Source: Anaerolineales bacterium
GTDB lineage: Bacteria; Chloroflexota; Anaerolineae; Anaerolineales; Villigracilaceae
Length of the DNA: 64,000 nt
Direction: 5' to 3'
NCBI GenBank assembly: GCA_030583925.1
Contig: CP129482.1
Coordinates: 3,634,001 to 3,698,000 of the forward strand
Part shown: one piece after another, positions 30,870 through 50,535 of the stretch
Layout: the number at the start of each line of letters is the position of its first letter
How positions within the stretch are numbered: the first letter of the stretch is position 1
Made by a program: the position numbers and the translations under genes
Notes under the pieces: model-generated
Seen by the model: the letters and a program-made list of their open reading frames with translations, nothing else
Told to the model about the DNA's origin: nothing
Databases searched by the model: none

Positions 30870-31087
30870 TGACATTGCGAGGAAGCGCAAAGCGGAGGAG
30901 TGACTAATTTGGTATATAAGCCACAGAGCGCGCAGAGATTTTGAGTTTTTTCTCAAAAGACTCAGTGACCTCTGTGGCAGAGAAAATTTTTACGCACCTT
31001 TCTCGCCACTCCCAAAGCGGTAACGAAGCAATCGCCAACTCAACAAGGGAATTGCTTCGTCGGGCTACCGCCCTCTTCGCAACGACA
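30870..31087. repeat. REP doublet, copy 3, interrupted by MITE copy B
   Basis: tgacattgcgaggaagcgc[MITE]aaagcggtaacgaagcaatc...attgcttcg...ttcgcaacgaca. Confidence 0.75.
30896..31013. mobile_element. 118-bp MITE-like element, copy B, with target duplication
   Basis: AGGAGTGAC...GCCACTCCC ends, flanked by AAAGCGG at 30889-30895 and 31014-31020. Confidence 0.75.
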
Positions 31088-32531
31088 TTTGATCGAGGAT
31101 ATTCAAAATAAACTCCGCCGTGCGTTTGCCAGATGCTCCATCGGTAAACGTAATTTCATTTTGGATGAACTTCCGCCTCTCTTCCGCGCTTACGGTTGGA
31201 TCCGCCAAGTAGACGTTTAACGCGTCCCGAAGTTGGTCCACGTTTTCCGCTACTCGACCTGCTTTCGCTTCCCTGAATCTTTTATGCGTGGGCCAATCGC
31301 CGATCTCTTTCAGCGACAGTGAAAATTTATTTTTCTTGTTCCACCCGCCAGGGACGTCAATCGTCGCGGCGATCATCGGCGTATCATGGACAGCGGTCTC
31401 GACCAGCATCGTCGAGTAGACGGTTACCACCACATCCGAATACGCCATCATGGACGATTTCTCGTCCATGTCTTCGCCGCCGTAGTAGCCGAGCGATCCG
31501 CCCAACGCCACAGGCTGGACAACATGCACGTGCGGATATTTCTTCTCCAGTTCAAAAACTCTTGCGCGTTCTTCGGCAAAAATCTTCGGCTTGTTTTGAA
31601 AGTGACTTGGATGCAGTCGAATCAACAACTGCGAAGGCTCTGCCAACGAATCGGATGAAACCAATTTCGCCAACGCTTCGATGTTCGGGAAGTTCGGCGC
31701 AAAATGGACAAAACTGCTGGCGTACGAAATCAACTTGCGGTTCGGGTCGAGGTTGTGTAGTTTGAAATACTCGTCACGAGGCATGAGCCATTGCTTGCGG
31801 AAATATCCGTCATACGATGGGATGCCGCCGATGTTCACGTTATCGGGATTCCAGTCTGAGCCGTAGACCAGTTCATCTTTTTGCAATTGCGACCAGCAGG
31901 TTGCGTACTGCACATCCGCGCCTGAGACGTTGTATGACGACGAATTGTCCCAGCCGACGATGACGGTCATGTTCGGGATGCCGCGCTTGGCAGACTCACG
32001 CAGGAGGTAACGATCCAACCTCCAGCCTGGAGTCGAAGCGATGACCATGTCGGGTTGATATTTGTCGAAGAGGTCGGCGTAAATTTCAGGGTCAGGGATG
32101 AAGCGGTTTTGCATCCGCACGAGAAGTTTGCGGGCGAAGGAAAAATTCCGCAGGAGGAGAATCATCAGCGCGGAGGGAATCCAAATGCCCAAACGGAATT
32201 TCCACGAGTTCTCCGCCCAGACTTCCCAGATGTGACTGTCCATGGCTTCGGTGTTGATACGGCGCGAGCCGCCGACGCGGCGCAGGTAGGCGAGGAGCCA
32301 TTGCAAGCGCGGTTGAAACGTAGTGGCGAATTTATTCGCCTGTTTGAGGCGGAGACCTTCGATGGTGAGACCGTGTTGCGAGAAACGCGAGGCGAGTTGT
32401 GCGACGATCTCGTCGTCGGTGAGAAGGATGACTTCGATGCCCGCTTTCAGCAGAGTCGGAACGACGTCGCTTTGTAAAAAATAGATGATCGCCATGCCGT
32501 GGTCGGCGGAGATGAAGATTCGTTTGGACAT
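31065..32531 (-). CDS. Putative GT-B-type polysaccharide transferase
   Basis: LLIRLHPS and SDVVVTVYSTMLVETA resemble glycerophosphotransferase/capsule-synthesis C-termini; last codons read into the REP. Confidence 0.55.
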   Translation of the reverse strand: MSKRIFISADHGMAIIYFLQSDVVPTLLKAGIEVILLTDDEIVAQLASRFSQHGLTIEGLRLKQANKFATTFQPRLQWLLAYLRRVGGSRRINTEAMDSHIWEVWAENSWKFRLGIWIPSALMILLLRNFSFARKLLVRMQNRFIPDPEIYADLFDKYQPDMVIASTPGWRLDRYLLRESAKRGIPNMTVIVGWDNSSSYNVSGADVQYATCWSQLQKDELVYGSDWNPDNVNIGGIPSYDGYFRKQWLMPRDEYFKLHNLDPNRKLISYASSFVHFAPNFPNIEALAKLVSSDSLAEPSQLLIRLHPSHFQNKPKIFAEERARVFELEKKYPHVHVVQPVALGGSLGYYGGEDMDEKSSMMAYSDVVVTVYSTMLVETAVHDTPMIAATIDVPGGWNKKNKFSLSLKEIGDWPTHKRFREAKAGRVAENVDQLRDALNVYLADPTVSAEERRKFIQNEITFTDGASGKRTAEFILNILDQMSLRRGR

Positions 32532-32545
32532 AATTTCTTATCAAG

Positions 32546-32652
32546 TGTCATTGCGAGGGCGATAGCCCGAAGCAATCTCGTGGTTTTATGTGAGGTGCCT
32601 GGTTCATGTTAACATGAGATTGCTTCAATCGCTCTGCTCCTTCGCAATGACA
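32546..32652. repeat. REP doublet, copy 4 (downstream flank of the GIY-YIG gene)
   Basis: tgtcattgcgagggcgatagcccgaagcaatctc...gagattgcttc...ttcgcaatgaca; abuts the TAG stop. Confidence 0.9.
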
Positions 32653-34167: not shown

Positions 34168-35073
34168 TTACTTGAAAATATTTTTCAATCGTTTTTGCCA
34201 TCGTTTTGGGCGGGCGATATTCTCAATCATGTTTTCAGGCAAAAAGAAAAAGACTGCTCGCAAGAATAATTCCAACTTGCGAGTAAACCGAAGCGACGTC
34301 ATCTTCGGGCGCGACAGTTTACCATCAATTAATTCGTGTGTCGCATCCAAAATTGTATATCGCACGTTCGCCTGTCCGCCCGCGAGCCGAATATTTTCAT
34401 TCGTCTCAGGATGTTCGTAGTGCGGCTTACCATCGGGCAGGTGCGAGTAATCGTGGTTCTGATGCACGATCATCACCGACGGCGTGCAATCAATCGCCGC
34501 CCAATTTTCTGCCCGCGCTTTGTAGATCATCCAATTATCCCAGCCCGCGCGACCGATCGTAAAATTCGGGACGTCTTGATAACAATTTTTTGGGAAGAGG
34601 AAAAAATCGCTTCCCGCGGGACGGTGAAGCTGGTTCAGTCTTCGGACAGATTCTCTCAGCCTCGATTCCCACCCCTCGGCAAAATCCAGCGGCGACGTGA
34701 TGTCATAATCCCAACGTTGACTCAGCAAAACGAATTTCGACCTTTGACCTTCGACCTTTTTCGCCGCCTCGACAAAATCATCCATTAAAATCATATCGGC
34801 GTTGACGATGCACAACAATTCGCTGTTTGAATTTTCCCTCGCAACCTCAAACATGGACGAGATCAACGGCACGCCATTTTCATTGACTTTCACTTTGGGA
34901 AAATGCCTGACGTTCAATTCTTTTGCAATCTCCGCAACCCCCGCCTCATCGCCAAGCAAAATGACTTCAACATCGGGAAGCATTGTCCACGATTTGATGG
35001 CGTTGCGTTGAATCATGGCAACATGCTGATTCGTGAAAGGCTTGGGGGCGGAGAAGAAAGTGATTAGGGGCAT
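34168..35073 (-). CDS. Hypothetical glycosyltransferase-like protein
   Basis: NADMIL DxD-like motif, GRAGWDNW; glycan-locus context. Confidence 0.55.
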   Translation of the reverse strand: MPLITFFSAPKPFTNQHVAMIQRNAIKSWTMLPDVEVILLGDEAGVAEIAKELNVRHFPKVKVNENGVPLISSMFEVARENSNSELLCIVNADMILMDDFVEAAKKVEGQRSKFVLLSQRWDYDITSPLDFAEGWESRLRESVRRLNQLHRPAGSDFFLFPKNCYQDVPNFTIGRAGWDNWMIYKARAENWAAIDCTPSVMIVHQNHDYSHLPDGKPHYEHPETNENIRLAGGQANVRYTILDATHELIDGKLSRPKMTSLRFTRKLELFLRAVFFFLPENMIENIARPKRWQKRLKNIFK

Positions 35074-35092: not shown

Positions 35093-35181
35093 TGTCGTTG
35101 CGAGCCCGATAGGGCGAAGCAATCTCCTCGAAACAGGAGATTGCTTCGTCGCAAAGAGCAAGAACGCTCCTCGCAACGACA
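35093..35181. repeat. REP doublet, copy 6
   Basis: tgtcgttgcgagccc...gggcgaagcaatctcc...ggagattgcttcg...ctcgcaacgaca; abuts a stop codon. Confidence 0.9.
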
Positions 35182-35994
35182 TTATTTTAGAGCACGGTCA
35201 TCAAAATCTTTCAACGTCTTATGCTGAACGCCTGCGTTAATCTTCATCAGTTCGGGGTGGTCGTGAACCAAATCGAGAACTTCCTTCCATGAGAAATCAT
35301 CACGACCATTGAAATGACTGTACACCTGCCGCATGAATTCCAAATCTTCGGGCGCATCCACCGTCCAGCGGTAATCGCCGAAGTCGGTGGTGTGGTGGAG
35401 GAGGGCGATGTTGTAGCCGCGTGGGGAAGCGCCAGTTTGCAGTTGACGGTTGACAGTTGTCAGTTCGACGCCTTCGTAGAAGTAAGGCATGACATGTTCA
35501 CGGTGCTGAGGTTCTTTAGCTTCTTTCCATGCTTGCTTCAATACTTTGAACGTGCAGGCTTCCACATCCAAGCCAATGGGGTAAGTGCGATGATAAGGCG
35601 GGGGCAGACGGTTGCAGACAAAATCATATTCATCTTCAAGCAAAGTATTGACCACATCATCAATCAACATAGGCTCAATCACTGGACAATCCGCAGTGAT
35701 TCGCACAACCACATCCGCTTTGGCTGACTTGGCGGTCTGATAATAACGGTCCAGCACGTCGTAGAGGCTGCCGCGCGTGAATGGGATTCCGCTGAAGTCG
35801 CAGTATTCGGCGACGGGGTCGTCGGAGGGATCGGTCGTCGTGGCGAAAACGGTTTGGGAAACTGAGGCAGACCGCGAGGTCCGAACGAAGACGCGTTGGA
35901 GCATGGGCTGTCCCGCGATGTCCGCGAGAATCTTCCCAGGCAGTCGCGATGAACTCATCCGCCCTTGTATGATGGCAACGACACGCGCTGTCAC
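35182..35994 (-). CDS. SpsF-like cytidylyltransferase (CMP-nonulosonate synthetase-like)
   Basis: IIQGRMSSSRLPGK, GSLYDVLDRY, VRITADCP, RWTVDAPED. Confidence 0.85.
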   Translation of the reverse strand: MTARVVAIIQGRMSSSRLPGKILADIAGQPMLQRVFVRTSRSASVSQTVFATTTDPSDDPVAEYCDFSGIPFTRGSLYDVLDRYYQTAKSAKADVVVRITADCPVIEPMLIDDVVNTLLEDEYDFVCNRLPPPYHRTYPIGLDVEACTFKVLKQAWKEAKEPQHREHVMPYFYEGVELTTVNRQLQTGASPRGYNIALLHHTTDFGDYRWTVDAPEDLEFMRQVYSHFNGRDDFSWKEVLDLVHDHPELMKINAGVQHKTLKDFDDRALK

Positions 35995-36350
35995 TGTTTG
36001 TCGGCGGGCGGCGGGGTGGCGGAGGATTTGGAAGATTCAGGCGAAGGGGTTACGGGCATGGGTTTTTCCAGACCCGCGACGCGGCTTTTATGCTCATCCA
36101 GTTCTTTTTCAAGCGCGCCGACTCGTTTGCGATGAGAGGAAGCTGCGAGGGAATTTTTGATCGCAGACGGGGAAAGCACCAGCAAGCCAATGACCACGCC
36201 AATGGCAAGTGTGACCAGCAAGACGAGGGACAGCGAACCCGTGACCTCCCACGCCAGAAAAGAGATGGTGACGGTGATCGTATTTTGCAAAGCAAAAATG
36301 ACCGCAATGACTGCGATCACCAGCGCGAAAATCAAATAAACAGTAGCCAT
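35991..36350 (-). CDS. LapA-domain (DUF1049) membrane protein
   Basis: AVIFALQNTITVTISFLAW...SLSLVLL pattern followed by a coiled coil. Confidence 0.75.
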   Translation of the reverse strand: MATVYLIFALVIAVIAVIFALQNTITVTISFLAWEVTGSLSLVLLVTLAIGVVIGLLVLSPSAIKNSLAASSHRKRVGALEKELDEHKSRVAGLEKPMPVTPSPESSKSSATPPPADKQ

Positions 36351-36394
36351 TTTGCCTCCGTGAATTTGCAGATGGAATTGCCTTCCGAATAATT

Positions 36395-37714
36395 TTACAC
36401 CGCTTGCGCCTCAGACGGTATGGGCAGGGGAACGACAAATCCTTTCGCTCGAAATTTTTCGACATACTCACGCACGACCCAATAATCCAAACCGACCTGT
36501 TCGGCGATGTCGAAGATGGAATGTTCGCCCTCGAAGCGCATCATGATCTTTTCGATGGCGCGGTTGAGCGCCCAATTGTCGCGCCAATCCACCCAGAGAC
36601 CGTGTCCGCTGAGAAACACAGGACCACGGAACGTGCGCTTCGGAATGTAATTGCTGGCGTAGATGCGGACGATGTCTTCGGCAATCTGCGCCGCGCCGAC
36701 GAGCATATCTTCGTGGATGATGTCGAGATTGTCGTCGGTGGTGTGATACTCGTCGTAGGGAAAACGGTTGAGCGAAATGCACGGCACGTTGACGCCAGGT
36801 CCGTTGATGACGCGTTCATCGTTGGCGGGAGCGGAGGCGAAGTCACGTTCATCGTGTTCGATATTGTGTAATTGGTAATTGGTAATTCGGTCGAGGAGAT
36901 GATCGTGCTGTCGCGTATGATGCCATGCAATTTTGTTTTTATTACCCGTCATCTCCATAAAGATTCCGCCGCGTAGATTTGGAATCAGCGACTCGTTGTG
37001 CGCCAGCCAGGCGATCGTGCCGATCGTCTCGGGTCCAAACCAAAAGCGGACGCTCATCGCGCCAGCGGGAAGCGGATTCTCCGCCAGCCGCCGCGCCAAC
37101 TCGATGGCGCTGACCACGCCTGCCCCATCGTCGTTGGCTTGCATGGGGTGACAGGTATGCGCCTGCACAAGGAACTCGCCCGCTTCGGGATTCGCCCCAC
37201 CTTGCGGATGGACAACCGCCGTAGCGACTTTGAATCCCTGCCTGGGATCGGTGACGAACTCGGACCTGATCACCGCATGATATTTTTTGTCGCGTGGGAG
37301 TTTATCGAATGTGTTTTTCGGCAAACAGAAGCCCCAGTCACGTTCGTAATATTTGAAAATCCACGGCACAGTGTGCGGACGCTTCTCGTTGAAATACAAA
37401 TGCGGCTGGAGTTCGTCGAAGCTCAAGACCACGTCAACGGGCAACGAATACGAAACAATGTGAAGCGGATTATCTTTGAAATCCACAATTCGCTCGCCTT
37501 CTTCGGTTTCGAGATACGCCTCATGGACAACGTACCGCTCAGGCACTTTCCACGTCCAGACGGGAGTCAGCGGCGCGTAGGTTTCAATCGTGTAATTCGA
37601 CGAATCGGGCATGTACGAGCCGACGATCTCCAACGTTTTGTCGTGGTCGTCTGAGGCGAGGGTGCGGTGCAGAGGAAAAAATTCTGCGAGGATGGATTTG
37701 AGGGAGGGTCTCAT
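36395..37714 (-). CDS. DUF4910-domain protein (peptidase M28-like fold)
   Basis: TWKVPERY, NPLHIVSYS, YYERDWGFC, CHPMQANDDGAG, PETIG, YHTTDD. Confidence 0.8.
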   Translation of the reverse strand: MRPSLKSILAEFFPLHRTLASDDHDKTLEIVGSYMPDSSNYTIETYAPLTPVWTWKVPERYVVHEAYLETEEGERIVDFKDNPLHIVSYSLPVDVVLSFDELQPHLYFNEKRPHTVPWIFKYYERDWGFCLPKNTFDKLPRDKKYHAVIRSEFVTDPRQGFKVATAVVHPQGGANPEAGEFLVQAHTCHPMQANDDGAGVVSAIELARRLAENPLPAGAMSVRFWFGPETIGTIAWLAHNESLIPNLRGGIFMEMTGNKNKIAWHHTRQHDHLLDRITNYQLHNIEHDERDFASAPANDERVINGPGVNVPCISLNRFPYDEYHTTDDNLDIIHEDMLVGAAQIAEDIVRIYASNYIPKRTFRGPVFLSGHGLWVDWRDNWALNRAIEKIMMRFEGEHSIFDIAEQVGLDYWVVREYVEKFRAKGFVVPLPIPSEAQAV

Positions 37715-37725
37715 AAAATCATTTT

Positions 37726-37884
37726 GCCACGGATTTCACGAATTATCACGGAAGTTCTCTTTTGAACCACTGAGTCACGGAATCACCGAAAATAATTTAA
37801 AAACTCCGTGACTCAGTGTCTCCGTGGTAAAAGTTTTGAATCTCTCTAAAAATAAATCCGTGTAGATCTGTGTCAATCTGTGGC
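37726..37884. repeat. Nested 9-bp-periodic palindromic repeats
   Basis: Outer gccacggatttcacga...tccgtgtagatctgtgtcaatctgtggc; inner accactgagtcacgga...tccgtgactcagtgtctccgtggt at 37766-37828. Confidence 0.7.
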
Positions 37885-37901
37885 TGAATCTCTTTCTTCT
37901 T

Positions 37902-38657
37902 TCAATCTTTCTTCACATAATACAACAAAAACGGATCCCTCCTCATCTCCCGCGCCGTAAACGCATAGACCTCGTTCGCCTTCATCAACTTCACATCCGC
38001 TTCGCCGATTCTTGCAGACTTAATCACGCCCGCCTGCTCCATCAACGCGCCCATCGGGTCAACCTCTGTAACGACGCCCTTGTCAATGTCGCGCACCAAC
38101 ATCTCGAACGTATCGGTGTACGTGTTCCCGTTCTCATCCGTCACCTCGCCCGTGAACTGTTTCAAGAACCGATAATCCACGCCCTCCATTTGCTCGATGT
38201 GATGGAAGAACGTCATGCTGTTCGTATACGACAGCCCGATCACCATGATCTTCCCATCCAAATCGCGCAACTTCCCGAACACCGAGTTCCGTTCATACGC
38301 GCTCTTGTATCGCAGGCTTCCCAGCGCCTCGGCATGTTTCCCCAACACCGCAAACGAATAAAACGGATGAAATACCCGCTTCGCGCGCGGGTCGAGCCGC
38401 ACCAGTTCCGTCAACACACCCATCTTCGACGGCGTCGTCCGCACATCCCATGCCGCGCCCTTGTTGAAATCGAAATTGAACGTCGGCATGATCAGCGTCC
38501 CCTCCGCGCCAAGTGCTGCCTCCAACGCACGGATCACCGTCTGCGGACCGCCGTCCACCTCGCCCAACGATTTATACGAACTATGCAAAAGCAACGTATC
38601 CCCCTCCTCCACGCCCAACCCTCGAAAACCCTCGACAAGATTTTCAAACGTCAACAT
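37902..38657 (-). CDS. AAC(3)/YokD-family N-acyltransferase
   Basis: LLLHSSYKSLG, IMPTFN, TPSKMG, FHPFYSF, TFFHHIE. Confidence 0.85.
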   Translation of the reverse strand: MLTFENLVEGFRGLGVEEGDTLLLHSSYKSLGEVDGGPQTVIRALEAALGAEGTLIMPTFNFDFNKGAAWDVRTTPSKMGVLTELVRLDPRAKRVFHPFYSFAVLGKHAEALGSLRYKSAYERNSVFGKLRDLDGKIMVIGLSYTNSMTFFHHIEQMEGVDYRFLKQFTGEVTDENGNTYTDTFEMLVRDIDKGVVTEVDPMGALMEQAGVIKSARIGEADVKLMKANEVYAFTAREMRRDPFLLYYVKKD

Positions 38658-38821
38658 GATTCCTCCAGAATTCCAACTCTTCAACCTTTATCCACACTGA
38701 CGCACGCTTCATTCCCAATTCAACCTGCCTCGCTTCGACCAGCCTTTCTCTCCCCCCTCGCGCTGAGCGGAGGACGAAGTCCGCAGTCGAAGCGTCTCCG
38801 TGTTCTCTGTGCTCTCTGTGG

Positions 38822-39955
38822 CTAAATGCCTTTGACCTTCTCGTAAGCCTCAAGAAGTGTACCAAAATTCCTCCTCCAATCCGCCCTCGCCTCCGCCGTC
38901 TTGCGCGCCGATTCTCCAATCCTCTTAAATTCTCTCTTTCTTTTTATCGCGGACAGAATTTTCTCCGCCAAATCCTCCACATCTCCATCACGGAACAACC
39001 ACCCGTTGACTCCATCCTCGATCCATTCCCTGTTGCCCGCAATATCCGACACCAAACACGGAAGCCCACTCGCCATCGCCTCCATCAACGTCACAGACGA
39101 ACCGTCCACATGCGACGGCGAGATGTACACATCCGCCATGTGATACCAGCGCGGCAGGTCGCGTTGTCCCACCTGTCCCCCAAAATGGACTCGTTCCATC
39201 ACCCCGCCCTTCATCAATATCTGGCGGATCTGATTCCCCTGCGAACCGCCTCCCAGCAAAATCAGATTCACATGTGGATTTTCATTCGCCACCATCACGA
39301 ACGCCTTCGCCAACACATCCACCCCATAGATCGCCTCCCACGTGCGGCTACAAAACAAAGTCACTGACTTTCGACTTTCGATTTTCGATTGACGACTTCT
39401 GTCTCCTGCCTTCTGCTTTCCGCTTTTTGCGCCCTTCGGCTTAAAACTTCCCAAATCAATCCCCCACGGAAACACCACCGTCCGCTCAGAATCCATCCCA
39501 AACGCAACTGCTTTTTCCCGCGTCACATTGGCGTCACATGTAAAATACGCGCTCCTTTGTAACGTGTACCTCGTAACCCATCGCATCCACGCGCTCTTAT
39601 CCGCCTCCATCACCAAATCATATCCCCACGACATCGCCAGCAAATGACGGAATCCGCTCAACGCCACAAGGAAGGCGCAATTCTGAATCGGTCCCGCATG
39701 GATGATGTCAGGCTGAATCTCCTGAATCACTCTTCGCAGGCTGAATACCAACCTCGGCACATCCCGCCAACGAAATTCGTTCCGCCCGCCCGCCCACAAA
39801 ATCTGCCGAACCTCCGCAGGGACAGGACGATCCTCCGTCTGCCGTTGAGTCGACTCCAATTGCAAAAAGCAGATTTCATGCTTCGTCTTCGACAACGATG
39901 ACAGAAACCGATAATCGTGCGGGGTATAGTTTTTACTGAAATAGATAATTTTCAT
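38822..39955 (-). CDS. Glycosyltransferase family 4 (GT-B)
   Basis: DGSSVTLMEAMASGLP...SDIAGNRE; start placed at MKIIYF because the ORF-track extension is REP sequence. Confidence 0.88.
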   Translation of the reverse strand: MKIIYFSKNYTPHDYRFLSSLSKTKHEICFLQLESTQRQTEDRPVPAEVRQILWAGGRNEFRWRDVPRLVFSLRRVIQEIQPDIIHAGPIQNCAFLVALSGFRHLLAMSWGYDLVMEADKSAWMRWVTRYTLQRSAYFTCDANVTREKAVAFGMDSERTVVFPWGIDLGSFKPKGAKSGKQKAGDRSRQSKIESRKSVTLFCSRTWEAIYGVDVLAKAFVMVANENPHVNLILLGGGSQGNQIRQILMKGGVMERVHFGGQVGQRDLPRWYHMADVYISPSHVDGSSVTLMEAMASGLPCLVSDIAGNREWIEDGVNGWLFRDGDVEDLAEKILSAIKRKREFKRIGESARKTAEARADWRRNFGTLLEAYEKVKGI

Positions 39956-39966
39956 AGCGCCAGTTA

Positions 39967-40070
39967 TGTCGTTGCGAGACCCCGAAGGGGTCGAAGCAAT
40001 CTCCTCGATACAAGCAATCACCTGAAACGAGGAGATTGCTTCGGCAGAAGAACGCCGCCTCGCAATGACA
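39967..40070. repeat. REP doublet, copy 7
   Basis: tgtcgttgcgagaccc...gggtcgaagcaatctcc...ggagattgcttcg...ctcgcaatgaca; abuts a TGA stop. Confidence 0.9.
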
Positions 40071-41138
40071 TCACGCTCCCAAATCCGTCCATCTCAACTC
40101 TTGACCATATTTGAAATCATGCAACGCCTTCGTGCCGACGACATTCTGGATCTGGTCAGGTTTGATCGCTCCAGGCGTGGCGGGACGCAACACGTCAATC
40201 ATGTCGCGGTTAAAAATCTCGCCAGCCTTGATGTCACGCGCCGCCCGCAGACAGCGACGTTGCACAACTTGAGTCTCCTGCTCGTTACCAGCGATAAATT
40301 TATCCGCCGAGCCAAGCGAACGTTCCAGCAGGCGCGTCTCTTCGACCATGCGCGCCCATTTGGCGGGATCCATCGCAAACTTGTGGTCGGGACCCTCGCG
40401 GTCGTTGCTGTCGGTGAAGTGACGCTCGATGACGCGCGCGCCAAGCGTCACTGCGCCGAGAACGGGAGCGACCGCGTGCGTATGGTCGGAGAGTCCCAGA
40501 ATCACATCAGGGAACATCGTCGCGTAGGTTTTGAGTACATTCAAATGCAAGTGGTCGTAGTTGTCGGGCGAGGCGGTGTAATTCGTGTTGCATTGCATCA
40601 ATACAAGTTGCTTGTTGATTTTCAAAATCGCATGGACAGCCTTCTGCACCTCGCCGATCGTGGACGCGCCTGTCGCGATAAAGAACGGCTTGCCCTTGCT
40701 TGCCATGCGCTCCAGCGCTTCGATCCAATCAATCTCGCCAGAGCCAGCCTTGTAGACAGGCACGTATTGGTCAAGGAAATCAATCGCGGCGAAATCATAC
40801 GGCGACGAGAAATAATCAATGCCCGCTTCCTGACATTCCTCCATCAACGTCATCGTCCACTCGAAGGGAATCGACGCGGCGCGGTAGACCTCGGTCACGG
40901 ATTTCTTCCACGATGCCTGATGGCTGACCTGCGCGTTCATGTGCGAGAAACCGTAATCCGACACGATCTTCGGCGCGTCGAAATTCTGGAATTTGGCGGC
41001 GTCCGCCCCCGCTTCCTTCGCCAAACGGATGAGCAGTTTCGCTCGTTGCAGATCGCCATCATGGTTGGCGGCAATGTCGGCGATAAAGTACGTCGGGTGG
41101 TTCAAACCGATCGTGCGATTTCCGAATTTGATTTCCAT
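40071..41138 (-). CDS. Nonulosonic acid synthase (NeuB/PseI family) with SAF domain
   Basis: IAANHDGD...AKFQ, GLSDHT, IERHFT...GPDH, C-terminal RAARDIKAGE...VLRP. Confidence 0.92.
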   Translation of the reverse strand: MEIKFGNRTIGLNHPTYFIADIAANHDGDLQRAKLLIRLAKEAGADAAKFQNFDAPKIVSDYGFSHMNAQVSHQASWKKSVTEVYRAASIPFEWTMTLMEECQEAGIDYFSSPYDFAAIDFLDQYVPVYKAGSGEIDWIEALERMASKGKPFFIATGASTIGEVQKAVHAILKINKQLVLMQCNTNYTASPDNYDHLHLNVLKTYATMFPDVILGLSDHTHAVAPVLGAVTLGARVIERHFTDSNDREGPDHKFAMDPAKWARMVEETRLLERSLGSADKFIAGNEQETQVVQRRCLRAARDIKAGEIFNRDMIDVLRPATPGAIKPDQIQNVVGTKALHDFKYGQELRWTDLGA

Positions 41139-41199
41139 GTTGTCCTCCGATGTATTTGACTCTATTTTATCTCACTGCTTTTCGGCTTATAATCTACGC

Positions 41200-41547
41200 A
41201 TGTCCATCCACATTCTCACAAGCAAGGCAACGCCGTTACAAGTGCGAGAAATGTTGGAGGCATTTTCTGAAATTCGTATGATCAAGATCGTCGTCGATAT
41301 CGAGCGTGAAATCGTCGCTGGCGGAAGCGGAATGCACTATGAATGCGAGCAACTCCTGCTTGAAGATGGAAGTCAACAGGATAACCTGTGGGGCGCAAAC
41401 TGGTTCCCAGATGAGCAAGAGATTGAATTCGAATCGTTGATAAACATCCGTCCACATCAAAATCGGAGCATTATTATTCAAGACGAGAACATTTGCAAAG
41501 AAGTCGAGCGGGTGACTCGCAAAGTTCTTGAAGGAGTAAAGCCATGA
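41200..41547 (+). CDS. DUF5674-like protein
   Basis: IKIVVDIEREIVAGG..MHYECEQLLLEDGSQQDNLWGANW...IEFESLINIRP; start placed at MSIHI. Confidence 0.75.
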   Translation: MSIHILTSKATPLQVREMLEAFSEIRMIKIVVDIEREIVAGGSGMHYECEQLLLEDGSQQDNLWGANWFPDEQEIEFESLINIRPHQNRSIIIQDENICKEVERVTRKVLEGVKP

Positions 41548-41888
41548 CACTGCTTGCCGAATCCTTTACCAAAGAAACTCCCGCACGACAAATGGGAGCG
41601 CTTGCCTCTACGCTGGGACGCATCGCCTCCTCTGCCGAGAAGACCGCCCGTGTCAATGCGATCATCCCAATGCTGGATGAGTGCCTGCGATTCATCGAAT
41701 GGACCGCCTCCCACCAAACCCCAGCCGCCAGCAAAGAGTTACAAGACATCAGCGCTATGCTGAAATTGTGGCGTGACGCCTGGGAGCATGCTCAGACAGA
41801 TGAACGCTTGCGAAGACTCTTATCGGTGCAGGCAAGGAAATGGTCCGATCTGGCATTGGAATATTCGGGGTTGTTAATCCAGACCTGA
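41544..41888 (+). CDS. Hypothetical helical protein coupled to the DUF5674-like gene
   Basis: ATGA overlap with the upstream gene; MGALASTLGRI...FIEWTA...WSDLALEYSGLL. Confidence 0.7.
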   Translation: MTLLAESFTKETPARQMGALASTLGRIASSAEKTARVNAIIPMLDECLRFIEWTASHQTPAASKELQDISAMLKLWRDAWEHAQTDERLRRLLSVQARKWSDLALEYSGLLIQT

Positions 41889-41931
41889 CGGGCGATGTGA
41901 AACCCAGGGGCTTCTCCTTTGAAGCAAAGGA

Positions 41932-42654
41932 TTAATGCCCATCCAAAATCTTTTTGGCGTCTACAGGGTTACCAACTGACAACACATCAATATCATACTC
42001 TCGGAATATATTGCTATTTTGATCCCAATATTCGATCAAAGCCATCGCCACTCCCACCGAATGGATTTGTTCGATATCCATGGGATGGAGCATTCCATAT
42101 GAGAGACTAACACAATCTGCTTTAATTTTTTGTAGATATTCAGCAATGTTTAAGAGCCTTCCCGTTAGCAAAGCACGGACGGTTAAATCAGGGTGAGCGA
42201 GTTTTGTGTGGAACAACTCTTCGTGGTCGAAGTACAACAAGAGCACATTATCTTTCGTGTTCGTCCGCCCCAGCAAACGAATGACTTCTTTTGCCAAGAT
42301 ACCTTCTGGCTTGAAAAAAGTTTTCATATCCAGAGATAAATGCACGCCCGTATCCCGCGCCCAGACAAGAACGTCTTCCAATAATGGCAAAGGCTCGCTG
42401 TTAATCTTGAGCTCCTTCAACTCATCCCAAGTTAGATCATGACACCAGCGCCCATCAGGAAGTTGGTAATTATGGCGAAGAAATGCAACACTATCCCGAC
42501 TCAGTTGCACATCTATTTCAATTAAGTCTGCGCCCAATCGCTGACCAAGCCGAATCGCTGTCCACGAATTTTCGGGCACATCGCCATTTTCCACGCCACG
42601 ATGCGACTCGATGAGCGTGCGTCTCGTTTTGGATTTGAGAAGTTCAAGAGGCAT
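41932..42654 (-). CDS. Glycerophosphodiester phosphodiesterase family protein
   Basis: SHRG...PENS...IEIDVQLSRD motif. Confidence 0.85.
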   Translation of the reverse strand: MPLELLKSKTRRTLIESHRGVENGDVPENSWTAIRLGQRLGADLIEIDVQLSRDSVAFLRHNYQLPDGRWCHDLTWDELKELKINSEPLPLLEDVLVWARDTGVHLSLDMKTFFKPEGILAKEVIRLLGRTNTKDNVLLLYFDHEELFHTKLAHPDLTVRALLTGRLLNIAEYLQKIKADCVSLSYGMLHPMDIEQIHSVGVAMALIEYWDQNSNIFREYDIDVLSVGNPVDAKKILDGH

Positions 42655-43006
42655 TCTGATCTCCAATCCTCCCCAAATGCGTATTCTGGAACGCGTCCTC
42701 GTGTTTCAAGCCGTAGCCGAAGACACGATCAAGGCTGGAGTGACCGAGGAGGACTGTCCCTGCGAACATGAGCGGCGGGGCGGAGAGGAGCGCGCCCAAC
42801 GCGTAAAGGGCGACAGAAACTCCCTTATGGTGAATCAGGTTATACGTCCACGCGCCGAAGCGGGGGTTTGCCAAATAGCCGATCATGCTCAGATCGGGCG
42901 CAAAAAACCACAGGGCGTACCATCCCCACCCGTAGTCCAATCCAGAAAAAAGAAAAAGGGCGAGACCGAACAAAAACAATTCTTCGAGTTTGAGCAGGTT
43001 TTTCAT
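42644..43006 (-). CDS. DUF4260-family membrane protein
   Basis: FFAPDLSMIGY...YNLIHH...HSSLDRVFGYGLK...THLG. Confidence 0.8.
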   Translation of the reverse strand: MKNLLKLEELFLFGLALFLFSGLDYGWGWYALWFFAPDLSMIGYLANPRFGAWTYNLIHHKGVSVALYALGALLSAPPLMFAGTVLLGHSSLDRVFGYGLKHEDAFQNTHLGRIGDQNAS

Positions 43007-43064
43007 GCGGCTCCTAAAGTGCGTCGCACCAGATGGTTGAGCGAATCACATCCATCGGCAGACT

Positions 43065-44030
43065 CTACTGGGCGAATTTGTCGCCGTCGGCAGAGTGCGA
43101 CGCACCCTCGCCTGGCTGTTGATAACCCCTGATTTTCTGTGGATAACCCTGCTGGAACTGCGTATAAAACCCGTCTAAGCCTGTGGAGAACGGGGGGAGT
43201 TCGTGCCCCAGCGCGGTGGATAACTTGTGGACAGACAGCCATAAATTGTGGGAACGTTTGGCGGTCAAGCCCGACCTTTCGACTGACTGCGGCTCGATGA
43301 GGCTTTCTTTCAGCCCGAACTTTCTTGCCACCTCCACCCCGAACTGATACTTGTTCATCGCCTGCGCGCCGACGACGTGATACAAACCATGCAAATCTTT
43401 CTTGAGCATTTCGATCAGGATGCGGCTGAGATGGTTGACCCACATCGGGCAGAAGACGACATCGGTGAAGCCGTTGACATTTTTGCCCGCGCTCAAGTTG
43501 TTGACAAAGAATTCGCCGAGACTCCTCCGCCCACCCAGCGACCAACCGTAGAAGTTGACGCGCGCCACGATCGCCTGCGGATTGGCGGACAGAACCGCCC
43601 GTTCTCCCTCCAATTTGGTCTGGGCATAGGCACCCAGCGGATTCGCCTCGTCAGCCTCGGTGTATGCGCCCTCTTTTGTGCCGTCGAATACCGCGTCGGT
43701 GGAGAAGTGAATGAACTTGACGCTTCGCCTCGCACACTCATTCGCCATCTCGGCTGGAACTTCGGCGTTCAGAATTCTCGCCTCGTCGGGACGCTCCTCG
43801 CACTCTTCCAGATTCGCAAATGCGGCGCAATTGATCAGCCAATCGGGTCTGGTTGAATCGAGGATGGATGCGACACTGCCCGCCCTGAGCAAATTCGCAT
43901 GAAGCACCCGAAACGGTGCGGACTTCAATTTGTCCCTGTCCACGCCAATGACATCATGCTCGCGCTTGGTTTCAAGAGCGAGGTTGATTCCGAGCAGTCC
44001 GCTTGCGCCAGTGATTAATATTCGAGCCAT
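43065..44030 (-). CDS. RmlD-like NDP-4-keto-6-deoxyhexose reductase (SDR)
   Basis: ITGASGLLG, INCAA, HFSTDAVFDG, YAQTK (YxxxK). Confidence 0.85.
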   Translation of the reverse strand: MARILITGASGLLGINLALETKREHDVIGVDRDKLKSAPFRVLHANLLRAGSVASILDSTRPDWLINCAAFANLEECEERPDEARILNAEVPAEMANECARRSVKFIHFSTDAVFDGTKEGAYTEADEANPLGAYAQTKLEGERAVLSANPQAIVARVNFYGWSLGGRRSLGEFFVNNLSAGKNVNGFTDVVFCPMWVNHLSRILIEMLKKDLHGLYHVVGAQAMNKYQFGVEVARKFGLKESLIEPQSVERSGLTAKRSHNLWLSVHKLSTALGHELPPFSTGLDGFYTQFQQGYPQKIRGYQQPGEGASHSADGDKFAQ

Positions 44031-44033
44031 GGG

Positions 44034-44082
44034 TTAAGTTCCAAGTTTCAAGTTCAATGTTTCAAGTTCGAGGTTTCACGTT
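44034..44082. repeat. Heptamer array (7 units, consensus TCAAGTT)
   Basis: ttaagtt ccaagtt tcaagtt caatgtt tcaagtt cgaggtt tcacgtt. Confidence 0.85.
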
Positions 44083-44084
44083 GG

Positions 44085-44483
44085 CTATGAAGCAGGCGAA
44101 GGCTTGTTTGGACGGTGGGGATTCTTCAGGATGCCTTTCTTCAGTCCGCCGATGATCGCTTGTGTCTTTTTAGCTTGGTCATAATGGGCTTTGAAAGATT
44201 CATCATTTATGTAACGAACGTCCAAAGCAACGTAAAGAAGGGATTGAACTTCCACAGCAGAACGACGCGCCATTCCCAAAAACCGTGCAAACTCCGCAGT
44301 AGATTCGTTGTCGAATCCTTCTGCAATATTGGTCATGGCAGAAACAGCGGCTCGTTGAACTTGATCCTTCATTCCAAAGTCTTTTGAAAACGCTCCCTCA
44401 GCCGTTATTTTGTAAATCATCTTCACCAACTTGCGAGCCTCCTGCCATGCGATCAAATCTTCAAATTTCGTTATAGCACCCAT
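44085..44483 (-). CDS. Four-helix-bundle protein (23S rRNA IVS/bAvd-like family)
   Basis: FEDLIAWQEA...DQVQRAAVSAMTNIAEG...ARRSAVEVQSLL. Confidence 0.92.
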   Translation of the reverse strand: MGAITKFEDLIAWQEARKLVKMIYKITAEGAFSKDFGMKDQVQRAAVSAMTNIAEGFDNESTAEFARFLGMARRSAVEVQSLLYVALDVRYINDESFKAHYDQAKKTQAIIGGLKKGILKNPHRPNKPSPAS

Positions 44484-44502
44484 TTTTCGCTCCTTCGGAA
44501 TG

Positions 44503-44534
44503 AACTTGAGACTTGAAACGTCGAACGTGAAACT
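44503..44534. repeat. Heptamer array, inverted relative to 44034-44082
   Basis: aacttga gacttga aacgtcg aacgtga; reverse complements are tcaagtt, tcaagtc, cgacgtt, tcacgtt. Confidence 0.8.
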
Positions 44535-44536
44535 CT

Positions 44537-45547
44537 CTATCCTTCGAGTTTGCCTTGCTTGAACAACTCCTCAAATGGCGCGACGAATTTTTTGATGCCG
44601 TCAATATCCAGCCATTCGGAATTGTTATCGCTCGTGTATGTGAAACCTTCGGGGAGCGGCTTACCTTTGTCCTTCCACGAGTAGCCGAACCACGAAGCCT
44701 CGGCGGGTTGGATGACATACATCCCGTCGAGTTCGACCGTGTGGCGGGCTTCGTCGTCCGAGATCAAATCTTCGTGGAGTTTTTCGCCAGGACGGATGCC
44801 TATGATGTCAATCTTTGCATTCGGCACGATGGCTTTGGCGAGGTCAACGACTTTCGTGCTGGGAATCTTCGGCACGAACACTTCGCCGCCTTCCATCTGT
44901 TCGATGCACTCGATCACAAATTTGACTCCCTGGTCCAGCGACAGCCAGAAGCGCGTCATGCGTTCGTCCGTGATGGTGACTGCACCGCTCTCCCGTTGTT
45001 TAAGGAACAACGGCACAACCGAGCCGCGCGAGCCGACGACATTCCCGTATCGGACGCACGAGTAGCGGGTCGCTGAGCCTGCGGCATAGGCGTTACTTTG
45101 CACGGTCAGTTTTTCGGCGGCTAGTTTTGTCGCGCCGTATAAATTCGCAGGGCTGACGGCTTTATCGGTGCTGATGGTCATCACCTTTTTCACGCCCGCA
45201 TCCAGCGCGGCTTCGACCACGTTCGCCGTGCCCATGATGTTGGTCTTGATGGCTTCCATCGGGTTGTACTCGCAGGCTGGCACCTGCTTCAACGCCGCCG
45301 CATGGACAACGATATCCACCCCGTGCATGGCACGGACGAGCCGCTCACGGTCGCGGATGTCGCCGATGAAATAGCGCAGTGACGGATGGTTGAATCCCTG
45401 CACCTGCATTTCGTGCTGTTTCAACTCGTCGCGGCTGAAGATGATGATCTTCTTCGGCTGTTTCTCGTCCAGCAACGTCTGCGTGAACTTCTTGCCGAAC
45501 GACCCCGTCCCGCCTGTGATGAGGATGACTTGATTTTTCCAGTCCAT
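44537..45547 (-). CDS. pseB: UDP-GlcNAc 4,6-dehydratase (inverting)
   Basis: ITGGTGSFG, FSRDELKQ, HAAALKQVPACEYNP, STDKA, YGATKL, RYGNVVGSRGS; start placed at MDWKN. Confidence 0.92.
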   Translation of the reverse strand: MDWKNQVILITGGTGSFGKKFTQTLLDEKQPKKIIIFSRDELKQHEMQVQGFNHPSLRYFIGDIRDRERLVRAMHGVDIVVHAAALKQVPACEYNPMEAIKTNIMGTANVVEAALDAGVKKVMTISTDKAVSPANLYGATKLAAEKLTVQSNAYAAGSATRYSCVRYGNVVGSRGSVVPLFLKQRESGAVTITDERMTRFWLSLDQGVKFVIECIEQMEGGEVFVPKIPSTKVVDLAKAIVPNAKIDIIGIRPGEKLHEDLISDDEARHTVELDGMYVIQPAEASWFGYSWKDKGKPLPEGFTYTSDNNSEWLDIDGIKKFVAPFEELFKQGKLEG

Positions 45548-45564: not shown

Positions 45565-45700
45565 TGTCGTTGCGAGGGCGCTCGTCCTGAGCGGAGCCCG
45601 AAGGGCGCAGACGAAGGAGCGCCCGAAGCAATCTCCTGTTATCAGGCAAATGCTTGTTGCGAGGAGATTGCTTCGCCGCCTTCGGCGTCTCGCAACGACA
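45565..45700. repeat. REP doublet, copy 8, with an extra palindrome in its loop
   Basis: tgtcgttgcgagggcgctc[gtcctgagcggag...gacgaag]gagcgcccgaagcaatctcc...ctcgcaacgaca. Confidence 0.85.
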
Positions 45701-47430: not shown

Positions 47431-49047
47431 TTATTTCCACGTAAACGGCTCACCAACGAGAAAACCGAACGTATCGCCAAATTGACTCATACCTTCGTCG
47501 CTCAACACTTTCTCCAACGACCACACATCCAGATCATCCCAAAAGTTCATCAGCCGCCACGGAAACGGACGCGGGTATTCAAAAAAGAAGCGATAGGCGT
47601 AGTTCCATGCTTTCGCGGTCTGCTCTTCGCTCAAACGATGCGCGGGCAAATCGGATAAAACATTTTCGAGCGCGGCAAAATAGTCGTCCCACGAGTTCGG
47701 GTCGATCGTGAAGCCGCGCCTGCGATAATGCGTGTCGCCACACACGATCACTGGGCGTCCGTTCATCGCAGTCTCGACGCCGACCGTGGTTGTATATGCC
47801 AACCCCAGATCGGCGATCTCGATTAGATCGTACGTGTTGACGTTGTCCAGCGCGCCGATGACGTGAATATGTTTTGGGATTTCGGGCAACGCTTCGCTCA
47901 CGACGGTTCCCATCGACTTCGCCTGCGGGACAAGTTTCTCGCCTGGATGCACACGCACCACTAACTGGACCTGAGGTCTGCTCGCAAAAAACTGGACCGT
48001 CCGCGTCATCCACTCGGACATCGACTCGGCGAAGACGTTTCTTCCCAACGTGAGGCTGTCTCCCAGCACGTTAGCCGCCAACAAAACGACGGGGCGGTCG
48101 TCAAGCCCCAACGATTTCTTTGTCGCTTCCGCGCCTTGCGATGAGACGTACTGCCACAGCCGCTTCGATTTTCCCCACACTCGCGCGCCGCGTCGAGCAT
48201 TTTCCAAGTCGGCGAGACGTTCGTACATCTCGTTTGTCATTGGCAATTTGCAGCGCGCTTCGACGAGATAATCCGTATCCTGCCGCATGATGGATGTGTT
48301 TTGCGCCAGCCAAATTTGTTCACGCTGGTCGTTGAATTCAAACGTCACGGCAGGGATGTTCAAATACTTTGCCACACGGAAGACGATTCCCATTTCAAGG
48401 ATCAGCCCGTTTGGAATCAAAACTACATCGGGCTTGTTGGCTTGCATCCATTCGAGGGCGGCGAGGGCGGCGAAAGTGTTGCGTTTGACGCGCAGGTCGT
48501 AGATGGCTTTGTCGCCCACGTCTGACATGTCCACTTCTTCGCGCATGAGGGTGTATTGCGCGTCCCACAGCGAGACTTCTTCGATGTCGGCGGCGAGAGA
48601 GGCGGGGAGAGTGGAGGCAGGCTTCAAATCCAAGAGAGAAACGTGCTGGACGAAAGAGGAAAGAGGAAAGAGGGCGTCGCGCGTATGAAGTCCACGCTGT
48701 CGTTGAGTCAGTTTATCCTTTTCTTTATGCCACTCAGAGTATGGAAGAGTCATCAGCGTGACTTTGTGTCCCAGCCCTGCGAGGGCGAGGGAGATGTACG
48801 CGGCTTGTTCGATCCAGTAGTGGAGGGTGGCGAAGAATAAAATATTCTTTGCTTCGTACTTCGTACTTCGTATTGGTTGTTGCAGGATTGGTTTGATGCG
48901 TTCGATGTCGCGGGGTAATGATTTTTGCAAGCGCGAGAGATTGAAGTGATCTTTGCGGGCGCGGCTTTTTTGCCGAAGCGCGTAATCCAGTTCGGCGGCG
49001 AGAGGCAGTTCGCCAAGAAAGTTGCGGAGGGAGGTTTTGTTGAGCAT
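47431..49047 (-). CDS. Capsule-polysaccharide-synthesis-like transferase (GT-B)
   Basis: LVVRVHPGE and TTTVGVETAMNGRPVIVCGDTHY resemble KpsS/Capsule_synth C-termini. Confidence 0.65.
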   Translation of the reverse strand: MLNKTSLRNFLGELPLAAELDYALRQKSRARKDHFNLSRLQKSLPRDIERIKPILQQPIRSTKYEAKNILFFATLHYWIEQAAYISLALAGLGHKVTLMTLPYSEWHKEKDKLTQRQRGLHTRDALFPLSSFVQHVSLLDLKPASTLPASLAADIEEVSLWDAQYTLMREEVDMSDVGDKAIYDLRVKRNTFAALAALEWMQANKPDVVLIPNGLILEMGIVFRVAKYLNIPAVTFEFNDQREQIWLAQNTSIMRQDTDYLVEARCKLPMTNEMYERLADLENARRGARVWGKSKRLWQYVSSQGAEATKKSLGLDDRPVVLLAANVLGDSLTLGRNVFAESMSEWMTRTVQFFASRPQVQLVVRVHPGEKLVPQAKSMGTVVSEALPEIPKHIHVIGALDNVNTYDLIEIADLGLAYTTTVGVETAMNGRPVIVCGDTHYRRRGFTIDPNSWDDYFAALENVLSDLPAHRLSEEQTAKAWNYAYRFFFEYPRPFPWRLMNFWDDLDVWSLEKVLSDEGMSQFGDTFGFLVGEPFTWK

Positions 49048-49134: not shown

Positions 49135-50424
49135 TTAATCGATCTTTTCGATCTTCCAATTCAAGCGCGGGCGGATGGGACCCTGTCGAAGTTCGGGCCA
49201 TTGCGTGCCAGGCGCGCCTGAAATGTCCACGTTGAACGACAGCGCGTTTTCATCCATGAAATATCGCTTCACGCCGAATGAACTCGCATTCACACCGAGA
49301 TAATAACGACCCTCGTTGAAAAAATCGGCGGGGATTTCGCAACGGCTCACATAACGTCCCGCCGCGCGCGCGCCGAACTGCTCGTATTGTCCCGCGTCGT
49401 CGGTGTCGAAGGCGGTGAACACGTATTCGCCGCGCATCGTGTTGAGATACATCCCCACGCGCAGTCCCGTGAGCGGCGCGTCGAGTTGATATTCGAATTC
49501 GACGGAGACAGGTTCCGTCGAGCGGACGGTGTCTACGACCTTCCCGCTTCTTTCCCGAAGTCGAATTGACACAGGTCTAAAGGGCGCGCTCGCCGCTGGG
49601 ACATCGTCCGCCTCCCAGACGCGCTCGCCCGATTCGGCTTGACCCGAGGCGAGATAAAAATCCACCGCTTCGGGAGTCGGCGCGCGCTTGATGAGTTGTC
49701 CCTTTTTCAAGACGATCGCTTCTTGAGTCAATCGCAGAATCGCCGACATGTTGTGACTCACGAACAACACCGTGCGTCCCTGCTGCGCGACGTCGTTCAT
49801 TTTGCCGAGACACTTCTTTTGAAATTCAGCGTCGCCGACGGCAAGCACTTCGTCCACGACGAGGATCTCTGGTTCGAGATGAGCCGCAACCGCAAACGCC
49901 AGCCGCAAATACATTCCCGACGAATAGCGTTTGACAGGCGTATCAATGAATTGCCCGACCTCGGAGAACTCGACCATCTCATCGAATTTTTTGTCAATCT
50001 CGCCGCGCTTCATGCCGAGGATGGCGCCGTTCATGTAAATGTTCTCGCGCCCCGTCAATTCTGGATGAAAACCCGTTCCCACTTCGAGAAGGGAGCCGAC
50101 TCGCCCGCGCACGGACACGGTCCCTTCGGTGGGTTCAGTGACGCGCGAGAGAATCTTGAGCAAGGTGCTCTTCCCCGCGCCGTTGCGCCCAACGATGCCG
50201 AGCACTTTCCCCTCGTCGAGGTCGAACGAAACGTCTTTCAACGCCCAGACAAAGTTTTGATTATTGCGACGCTCCGATTTGCCGACCAGCGCTTTCGCCA
50301 ACCGCACAGGCGCGTAGAGTGTGTCCACGAGCACGTCGCGGAGCATGTTGTAGCGGAATTTGGTCTCCGCCGCGCCGATCTGGTATCGTTTGCCGAGGTT
50401 TGAAACGCTGATTGCGGTGGTCAT
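49135..50424 (-). CDS. wzt: Polysaccharide ABC exporter ATPase with C-terminal Wzt-C domain
   Basis: GRNGAGKST, YSSGMYLRLAF, VDEVLAVGD; start placed at MTTAIS. Confidence 0.9.
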   Translation of the reverse strand: MTTAISVSNLGKRYQIGAAETKFRYNMLRDVLVDTLYAPVRLAKALVGKSERRNNQNFVWALKDVSFDLDEGKVLGIVGRNGAGKSTLLKILSRVTEPTEGTVSVRGRVGSLLEVGTGFHPELTGRENIYMNGAILGMKRGEIDKKFDEMVEFSEVGQFIDTPVKRYSSGMYLRLAFAVAAHLEPEILVVDEVLAVGDAEFQKKCLGKMNDVAQQGRTVLFVSHNMSAILRLTQEAIVLKKGQLIKRAPTPEAVDFYLASGQAESGERVWEADDVPAASAPFRPVSIRLRERSGKVVDTVRSTEPVSVEFEYQLDAPLTGLRVGMYLNTMRGEYVFTAFDTDDAGQYEQFGARAAGRYVSRCEIPADFFNEGRYYLGVNASSFGVKRYFMDENALSFNVDISGAPGTQWPELRQGPIRPRLNWKIEKID

Positions 50425-50434
50425 AAAATTCAAA

Positions 50435-50533
50435 TGTCTTTGCGAGGAGCGTTCGTTGCGACGAAGCAATCTCCTCGCCAGATAATCACCTCTCGATGAG
50501 GAGATTGCTTCGCAACGTGCGCTCGCAATGACA
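50435..50533. repeat. REP doublet, copy 10
   Basis: tgtctttgcgaggagcg...cgacgaagcaatctcc...ggagattgcttcg...ctcgcaatgaca. Confidence 0.9.
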
Positions 50534-50535
50534 TG

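Follow-up and report, generated by a model that had tools for sequence, protein, structure and literature searches.

Gene content of the operon

The stretch of DNA analysed here, 64,000 nucleotides in length and referred to as the window, comes from the single-contig genome (3.97 Mb, 95.9% complete) of a sludge bacterium of the order Anaerolineales. Positions 35182-45547 hold minus-strand operon genes, among them pseB and an SpsF-type cytidylyltransferase gene (Table 1), that we interpret as a cassette for nonulosonate synthesis. An earlier note on this DNA had recognized PseB, a NeuB-family synthase and an SpsF-like cytidylyltransferase, all confirmed here by family scans. The 4-keto reductase that it had placed next after pseB, ignoring the four-helix cassette, is likewise confirmed as RmlD-like and has an intact catalytic triad. 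The note was right about the pathway genes but left the removal of UDP unexplained, and it mentioned neither the protein with a glycosyltransferase family 4 (GT4) fold nor the AAC(3)-family and DUF4910 proteins of the same operon. Taken together, enzyme families, synteny and one literature parallel suggest a real, conserved and undescribed variant of nonulosonate synthesis. Literature searches, with subscription carbohydrate journals outside their scope, found no description of this pathway. The product is most likely a rare sialic-acid-like sugar in which a hydroxyl group takes the place of the second amino group of pseudaminic acid.

The first enzyme scores 493 bits against the PseB model TIGR03589 (cut-off 407.75) and fails the FnlA model TIGR04130 (259 vs 730); its ATG at 45547 follows an AGGAG. 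PseB produces a UDP-4-keto-6-deoxy-L-sugar (PMC5109656). The reductase matches PF04321 (E 3e-63) and has a conserved NAD(P) motif and Ser/Thr-Tyr-Lys triad, with G8/G11/G14, S110-T111-D112, Y135 and K139 kept across 97 homologues. Among 102 loci with enough flank, drawn from several phyla, its gene immediately precedes that of the synthase in 80. We propose that this enzyme reduces the C4 ketone in place of PseC and PseH, as its family and position would suggest.

An ordinary RmlD, or an enzyme of the QnlA/WbvR type that has nothing to do with the synthase, would also fit the family match, and the genome does hold an rmlB-like gene and two non-hydrolysing 2-epimerases. The route to UDP-L-RhaNAc and UDP-L-QuiNAc consists of WbvB/FnlA, WbvR/QnlA and a 2-epimerase, and like the cassette it pairs a UDP-GlcNAc 4,6-dehydratase with an RmlD-like 4-reductase. 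However, the dehydratase here is PseB rather than FnlA, the cassette has no 2-epimerase, and genes for a nonulosonate synthase and a CMP synthetase come after the reductase. The protein also falls short of the RmlD model TIGR01214 (186 against a cut-off of 224), and no RmlC (PF00908) match was found anywhere in the genome, which places the reductase outside any rhamnose pathway. With the recurrent adjacency to the synthase, these results make an ordinary RmlD extremely unlikely.

The synthase is under the cut-offs of both the NeuB (271/400) and PseI (246/340) models, and in the tree it belongs to a clade apart from PseI and from the NeuC-linked synthases (support 100/99). Its closest named homologues are from Anaerolineales and other Chloroflexota. 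Alignment and conservation indicate that it retains the residues of Neisseria meningitidis NeuB that bind metal, phosphoenolpyruvate (PEP) and sugar, with Glu25 replaced by Asp. The aldose-binding Asp and Arg are among those retained, and the active site resembles an ordinary aldose site. The cytidylyltransferase is of the SpsF type, with a CTP_transf_3 match and 19 bits against the PseF model.

The earlier note had reported that PseC, PseH and PseG were not recognisable in the window, and a whole-genome check extended this statement to the rest of the chromosome. No PseG match was found in the genome at E<=1, and tblastn with three PseG-type proteins as queries returned nothing. The best PseC score in the genome, among three DegT genes, was 321 against a cut-off of 423.5; the best PseH score was 63.5 against 93.1, from a gene 40 kb from the cassette; and the best score for a hydrolysing 2-epimerase of the NeuC/LegG type was 90.5 against 235.9. 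One DegT gene is WecE, above its cut-off. By neighbourhood the second is WbpE-like, inside a wbpA/B/D/E cluster with a 2-epimerase, and the third is FdtB-like, beside an FdtA/C-like gene. None of the 26 synthase-bearing relatives has PseC or PseG above cut-off. GT28-domain genes elsewhere in the genome were considered as PseG and rejected, being far from the cassette and giving no PseG match. DegT and class III aminotransferases, accompanied in some loci by AKR or Gfo/Idh genes, scored under the PseC cut-off where tested and are read as candidates for later tailoring.

A di-amino sugar of the pseudaminic type would arise if WecE, encoded 20 kb upstream, aminated C4 and either AAC(3) or a GNAT at genome position 3720638 acylated the amine. 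WecE is above its cut-off, lies within the same large glycan region and was detected in 14 of the 18 genomes from the same genus, and AAC(3) is in the operon itself. However, 11 of the 26 synthase-bearing relatives gave no WecE match, one of them a closed, 99%-complete genome, and WecE was not found in seven of the eight cassette-bearing genomes that belong to other families, one of which is closed. Several loci have no AAC(3), whose occurrence is linked to that of DUF4910; the conserved reductase would be left without a role; and the synthase is not PseI. We regard a di-amino product as distinctly unlikely.

Table 1. Features of the nonulosonate operon and its surroundings, in window positions.
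Position	Strand	Feature	Basis
44537..45547	-	PseB, UDP-GlcNAc 4,6-dehydratase (inverting)	TIGR03589 above cut-off; start checked
44085..44483	-	Four-helix-bundle 23S_rRNA_IVP insert, outside pathway	PF05635
43065..44030	-	RmlD-like NAD(P)H 4-ketoreductase	PF04321
42644..43006	-	DUF4260 membrane protein, optional insert	PF14079
41932..42651	-	GDPD-family phosphodiesterase, optional insert	PF03009
41200-41888	+	Two small opposite-strand ORFs, GDPD/synthase interval
40071..41138	-	NeuB-type nonulosonate synthase, distinct clade	PF03102 + SAF
38822..39955	-	GT4-fold protein, candidate UDP-sugar hydrolase	Pfam + predicted fold
37902..38657	-	AAC(3)-family N-acyltransferase, optional	PF02522
36395..37714	-	DUF4910/DUF2172 aminopeptidase-like (Cj1295-like), optional	PF16254, PF09940
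35991..36350	-	LapA-domain membrane protein, optional	PF06305
35182..35994	-	SpsF-type cytidylyltransferase, predicted CMP activation	PF02348 (CTP_transf_3)
34168..35073	-	Conserved Anaerolineales protein, probably GT-A fold	Conserved after spsF
31065..32531	-	Candidate CMP-ulosonate transferase, TagF/BFO_1060-like	Weak PF04464; NF046086 E 6e-13, below cut-off
47431..49047	-	Candidate CMP-ulosonate transferase, Capsule_synth/KpsS-like	PF05159; weak NF046086; synteny
49135..51378	-	Wzm/Wzt-type ABC glycan exporter, same operon	Recognised from translations; conserved synteny

Distribution of the cassette

The gene order pseB-reductase-synthase-GT4 recurs, beyond what chance would give, in 19 of the 20 Anaerolineales loci compared, which span nine families. 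The exception is a locus at a contig edge that is without pseB, and most of the 20 are without an aminotransferase. The reductase orthologue was found in 99 of 151 sampled Anaerolineales genomes; some families have it almost throughout, and in others the search gave no match. Outside Anaerolineales, members of the synthase clade were found in Bacillota, Proteobacteria, Acidobacteriota, Bacteroidota, methanogenic archaea and further groups, and the reductase-synthase pair recurs in many phyla, in archaea and in phages, usually without PseC. Among 80 loci of the clade, several of which end at contig edges, we counted the reductase in 71, PseB in 63, a cytidylyltransferase of the SpsF or PseF type in 62 and true PseC in five. 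A minimal cassette of pseB, cytidylyltransferase, rmlD and neuB is found in a Lysinibacillus flagellin island, which holds only maf, pseB, spsF, rmlD, neuB and a GNAT gene, and in a second locus. In phages, pseB, rmlD, neuB and GNAT occur together in most of the 32 loci scanned. PseG and PseC-like scores were found in none of these loci, whereas the scan did show PseG at a canonical PseI locus.

The proposal of the earlier note that the reductase acts instead of PseC and PseH is supported in that pseC, pseG and pseH, looked for across the genome, all stayed under cut-off, as did PseC and PseG in the 26 relatives, but the swap is not strict. In one type of Acidobacteria locus, PseC occurs alone (L125), the reductase alone (L106), both together (L092, L096, L121, L127) or neither (L075). 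This alternation fits two enzymes that would share one ketone substrate.

Several loci depart from the common layout. In a same-genus locus (L044, genome G023) pseB is missing between a methyltransferase and the reductase. A sister synthase clade (L050 8071-12261; L177, L178) has SpsF, a DegT other than PseC and DUF218 in the position of the gene beside the synthase, with no reductase and no PseG. At L053 2795-11603 and L135 3994-11607 the reductase-synthase-GNAT unit adjoins a TPP enzyme, with no CMP synthetase within 10 kb, and at a Brevibacillus migulae locus CDP-3,6-dideoxy-sugar genes also adjoin this unit and the TPP enzyme. The synthase and a short GT2 form a two-gene unit among unrelated genes at L126 9920-11729. 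In the phage cassettes (L151-L176, L181), pseB-rmlD-neuB-GNAT is followed by genes that by eye resemble a PIG-L deacetylase and a formyltransferase, a pair suggestive of another N5 acyl swap.

The source genome has a second NeuB gene at about 145 kb (L023 10435-15028; genome 145-150 kb). It is short, without the C-terminal domain, outside the clade and in a cluster of its own, whose other genes encode an SDR, a PseF-like cytidylyltransferase and a protein resembling Capsule_synth. The genome has no NeuC that would account for its precursor.

The gene beside the synthase

In the 80 clade loci the gene beside the synthase is a GNAT in 35, a member of the GT4 family in 22, a short GT2 in 15 and a TIM-barrel protein in two; five of these slots are empty and one holds two genes. 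The four types (GT4, GT2, GNAT-fold and TIM barrel) are mutually unrelated. The expectation of 18.5 double-filled slots against one seen overstates their exclusivity, and is not a p-value, because slot type follows the synthase tree. The position of GT4 itself varies: it lies between pseB and the reductase in L109 and L118, and between the reductase and the synthase in L230. The slot GNAT is under the PseH cut-off, has L-Y-I-D at the usual place of the R/Q-x-x-G-x-G CoA motif, and in cassettes without PseC would lack an evident amine substrate.

PseG was above cut-off in five of the 43 genomes tested. One of these (L110, Acidobacteria) has the order pseB-spsF-rmlD-neuB-X-pseG, and next comes the deacetylase gene that in sister loci stands after GT4; no GT4 was found at the locus and no PseC in its genome. 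Another (L077) is a split cassette with reductase and PseG and no slot gene, in two of the five PseG lies within separate canonical Pse clusters, and the fifth (L054, a GNAT locus) is ambiguous. The real PseG of L110 implies that the route passes through a freed aldose, and we take this locus as good evidence for a freed-sugar intermediate and, as one clean event, as weaker evidence that GT4 carries out the release. Since L110 lacks GT4 and has a real PseG, GT4 is the best candidate for the hydrolase, and on gene replacement we put the odds that it is the missing UDP-sugar hydrolase at about even. Two other candidates were rejected: the GDPD protein is present in two of 20 relative loci, and the conserved protein encoded after spsF, considered as a universal hydrolase, is confined to Chloroflexota loci.

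All of the top 50 folds matching the structure model of GT4 are GT4 enzymes and glycogen synthases, with BshA and MshA nearest, and hhalign gave a probability of 23% against the L110 PseG. The model confirms the fold but does not separate a hydrolase from a transferase; the mismatch lowers the chance that GT4 is a PseG, not the chance that it works like one. The nearness to retaining transferases is compatible with two products, in which PseB and the reductase would make a UDP-6-deoxy-HexNAc as a glycan unit, GT4 would transfer it as an ordinary transferase, and the synthase and SpsF would build a nonulosonate on a precursor from an unrecognised hydrolase or another route. Fusobacterium nucleatum incorporates L-6dAltNAc itself as a glycan residue, which, like the co-occurrence of PseC and reductase in four loci, also fits this explanation. 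However, the GT4 family stays with the synthase in Chloroflexota, Acidobacteriota, Gemmatimonadota and Proteobacteria despite differing neighbour glycan genes, it lies among the cassette genes in the three rearranged loci, and it is missing where PseG is present (L110, L077). We consider two separate products unlikely.

The scarcity of PseG, missing from nearly all loci, would also be explained if no hydrolase were needed, the synthase joining PEP to the sugar at its C4 ketone, with UDP still attached, to give a C4-branched nine-carbon sugar, in the manner of shewanellose, and the reductase then reducing the branch. The reductase is indeed tied to the synthase more tightly than PseB is, and it is also found beside CDP-4-keto-sugar genes and TPP enzymes (L053, L135). 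Against this stand the CMP-ulosonate synthetase in 62 of 80 loci, the real PseG in L110, the aldose-like active site of the synthase and the Maf-family genes in flagellar versions, and together they make a branched sugar very unlikely.

A broader possibility, which we offer tentatively and hold to be somewhat doubtful, is a separate and widespread pathway to 7-hydroxy-9-deoxy sugars in which four folds (GT4, GT2, a GNAT without its CoA motif and a TIM barrel) would have filled the hydrolase step independently. As part of this possibility, and with the same reserve, the reductase-type pathway may be near-core in about nine Anaerolineales families and extend to Bacillota, Proteobacteria, methanogenic archaea and phages.

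Proposed pathway and relation to known systems

We assign a probability of about 70% to a branch of pseudaminic acid synthesis that does without PseC, PseH and PseG, and the same to a 5-acylamino-7-hydroxy-9-deoxy nonulosonate as its product. PseB, by its family, would convert UDP-GlcNAc to UDP-2-acetamido-2,6-dideoxy-L-arabino-hexos-4-ulose, and the RmlD-like enzyme would reduce the C4 ketone to a hydroxyl, giving UDP-6-deoxy-L-AltNAc or its L-ido epimer. UDP would then be removed, most likely by the GT4-fold protein with water as acceptor. The clade-specific synthase would condense the freed sugar with PEP to a 5-acetamido-3,5,9-trideoxy-non-2-ulosonic acid belonging to the same class as fusaminic acid, for which the calculated mass is 293.111 Da (oxonium ion 276.108, DMB adduct 410.156), and SpsF would form the CMP sugar. 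As an optional step DUF4910 and AAC(3) may exchange the N5 acetyl for another acyl group, and KpsS/BFO_1060-like proteins would finally pass the sugar to an ABC-exported surface glycan.

The likeness to fusaminic acid raised in the earlier note finds support in the literature on F. nucleatum ATCC 25586. Its FN1682-FN1686 operon includes FN1686, a CTP transferase, FN1685, a dTDP-4-dehydrorhamnose reductase (RmlD-like), FN1684, a NeuB, and FN1683, a GNAT, without neuC (PMC4045943, Table 4), and its O-chain contains both L-6dAltNAc and fusaminic acid (PMC13014188), that is, the predicted precursor sugar and the predicted product class. Compared by published order and not by sequence, this operon matches the Lysinibacillus form of the cassette, and the operon described here shares its pattern of a CTP transferase, an RmlD-like protein and NeuB without neuC. 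The two differ in that F. nucleatum has a GNAT beside the synthase and the present cassette has GT4. Fusaminic acid bears an acetamidino group at C5, and its configuration is tentatively given as L-glycero-L-gluco. No paper linking the FN1682-FN1686 genes to fusaminic acid was found.

With the CMP-pseudaminic acid pathway of Campylobacter and Helicobacter (PseB, PseC, PseH, PseG, PseI, PseF), the cassette shares true PseB, a NeuB-fold synthase with SAF domain, predicted CMP activation and a Cj1295/Cj1296-like tailoring pair. It differs in having an RmlD-like reductase instead of PseC, PseH and PseG, a synthase of a separate clade and a cytidylyltransferase of the SpsF rather than the PseF type. 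Lacking four defining features, the cassette is not a member of the pseudaminic acid pathway but would work like one.

Several observations weigh against the proposed route. The WecE C4-aminotransferase and the AAC(3) acyltransferase are both in the genome, and four Acidobacteria loci hold PseC and reductase together. The reductase is missing from some loci (L075, L051), and L053 and L135 show no CMP-transferase within 10 kb. Slot type tracks the synthase tree, so that its exclusivity amounts to few independent events, and one locus (L054) has a GNAT plus a PseG about 11.5 kb off, which is ambiguous. The predicted fold of GT4 resembles BshA and MshA and is not PseG-like, and the F. nucleatum link draws on gene order and sugars from two papers, not on sequence.

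If the proposed route is correct, genes would be assigned to a sugar class known, in searchable papers, from one F. nucleatum strain, and the fusaminic-type class would be common rather than rare, as the spread of the reductase orthologue through Anaerolineales suggests. Annotation pipelines give these synthases the name 'N-acetylneuraminate synthase', and reports of sialic or pseudaminic acid that rest on genomes of Chloroflexota from sludge and sediment may therefore be mistaken about the sugar. The gene replacement also names candidate hydrolases, one of them a GNAT-fold protein whose activity may be other than acetyl transfer. Cultured carriers of the cassette exist, among them the Lysinibacillus strain of GCA_000801965.1, Oceanobacillus chungangensis, Neptuniibacter caesariensis MED92 and Methanolobus psychrotolerans.

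Tailoring, transfer and export

In the 20 Anaerolineales loci AAC(3) and DUF4910 are optional and travel together. In C. jejuni, Cj1295, a DUF4910 homologue, is required for 5-N-dimethylglyceroyl pseudaminic acid and is proposed to cleave the N5 acetamide; its gene adjoins that of the N-acetyltransferase Cj1296/7 (PMC3068675). The deacylation mechanism is itself a hypothesis in C. jejuni. Cj1295 belongs to the same Pfam family as the protein described here, and in both organisms the pair is adjacent and beside nonulosonate genes. By this analogy DUF4910 and AAC(3) probably act as Cj1295 and Cj1296/7 do, in an N5 acyl swap. Such a role would account for an acyltransferase in a pathway without a C7 amine, and the product here may then carry a non-acetyl N5 group.

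Wzm/Wzt-type genes and Capsule_synth lie upstream of the cassette and a TagF-like protein is encoded downstream; in relatives the Capsule_synth/KpsS-like gene is directly upstream of the module. The TagF-like and Capsule_synth proteins both weakly match the model of BFO_1060, which we take to be a nonulosonate transferase. For the conserved protein encoded after spsF, no Pfam or NCBIfam match was found, and its nearest annotated Atlas clusters are GT2-like. The same glycan region contains wbpA/B/E/D-like genes with a 2-epimerase (L021 12520-18173; genome 3728.5-3734.2 kb), a likely pathway to a 2,3-diacetamido-uronic acid.

Other features of the region

Most relatives among the 20 Anaerolineales loci have no copy of the four-helix 23S_rRNA_IVP gene at the corresponding place, and the DUF4260 insert is confined to some same-genus loci. 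Heptamer-like repeats (TTGAAAC / TTTCAAG) flank the four-helix gene at 44030-44085 and 44483-44537 and suggest a mobile cassette. The first of the two small plus-strand ORFs resembles DUF5674 by eye. Promoter and terminator scans of the region gave results at chance level. Contigs from sludge and bioreactor metatranscriptomes cover most of the operon at low depth, which cannot show transcription. Palindromic intergenic repeats of the GAGATTGCTTCG / CTCGCAACGACA type lie between operon genes (39960-40060, 45570-45700, ~32540-32580 and 35100-35180) and draw reads from other places in metatranscriptome mapping; a small GIY-YIG nuclease gene (32653-32949) lies alongside them. At 25620-26235 of the window, on the minus strand, a small gene pair resembles, by eye, an MNT/HepT toxin-antitoxin system.

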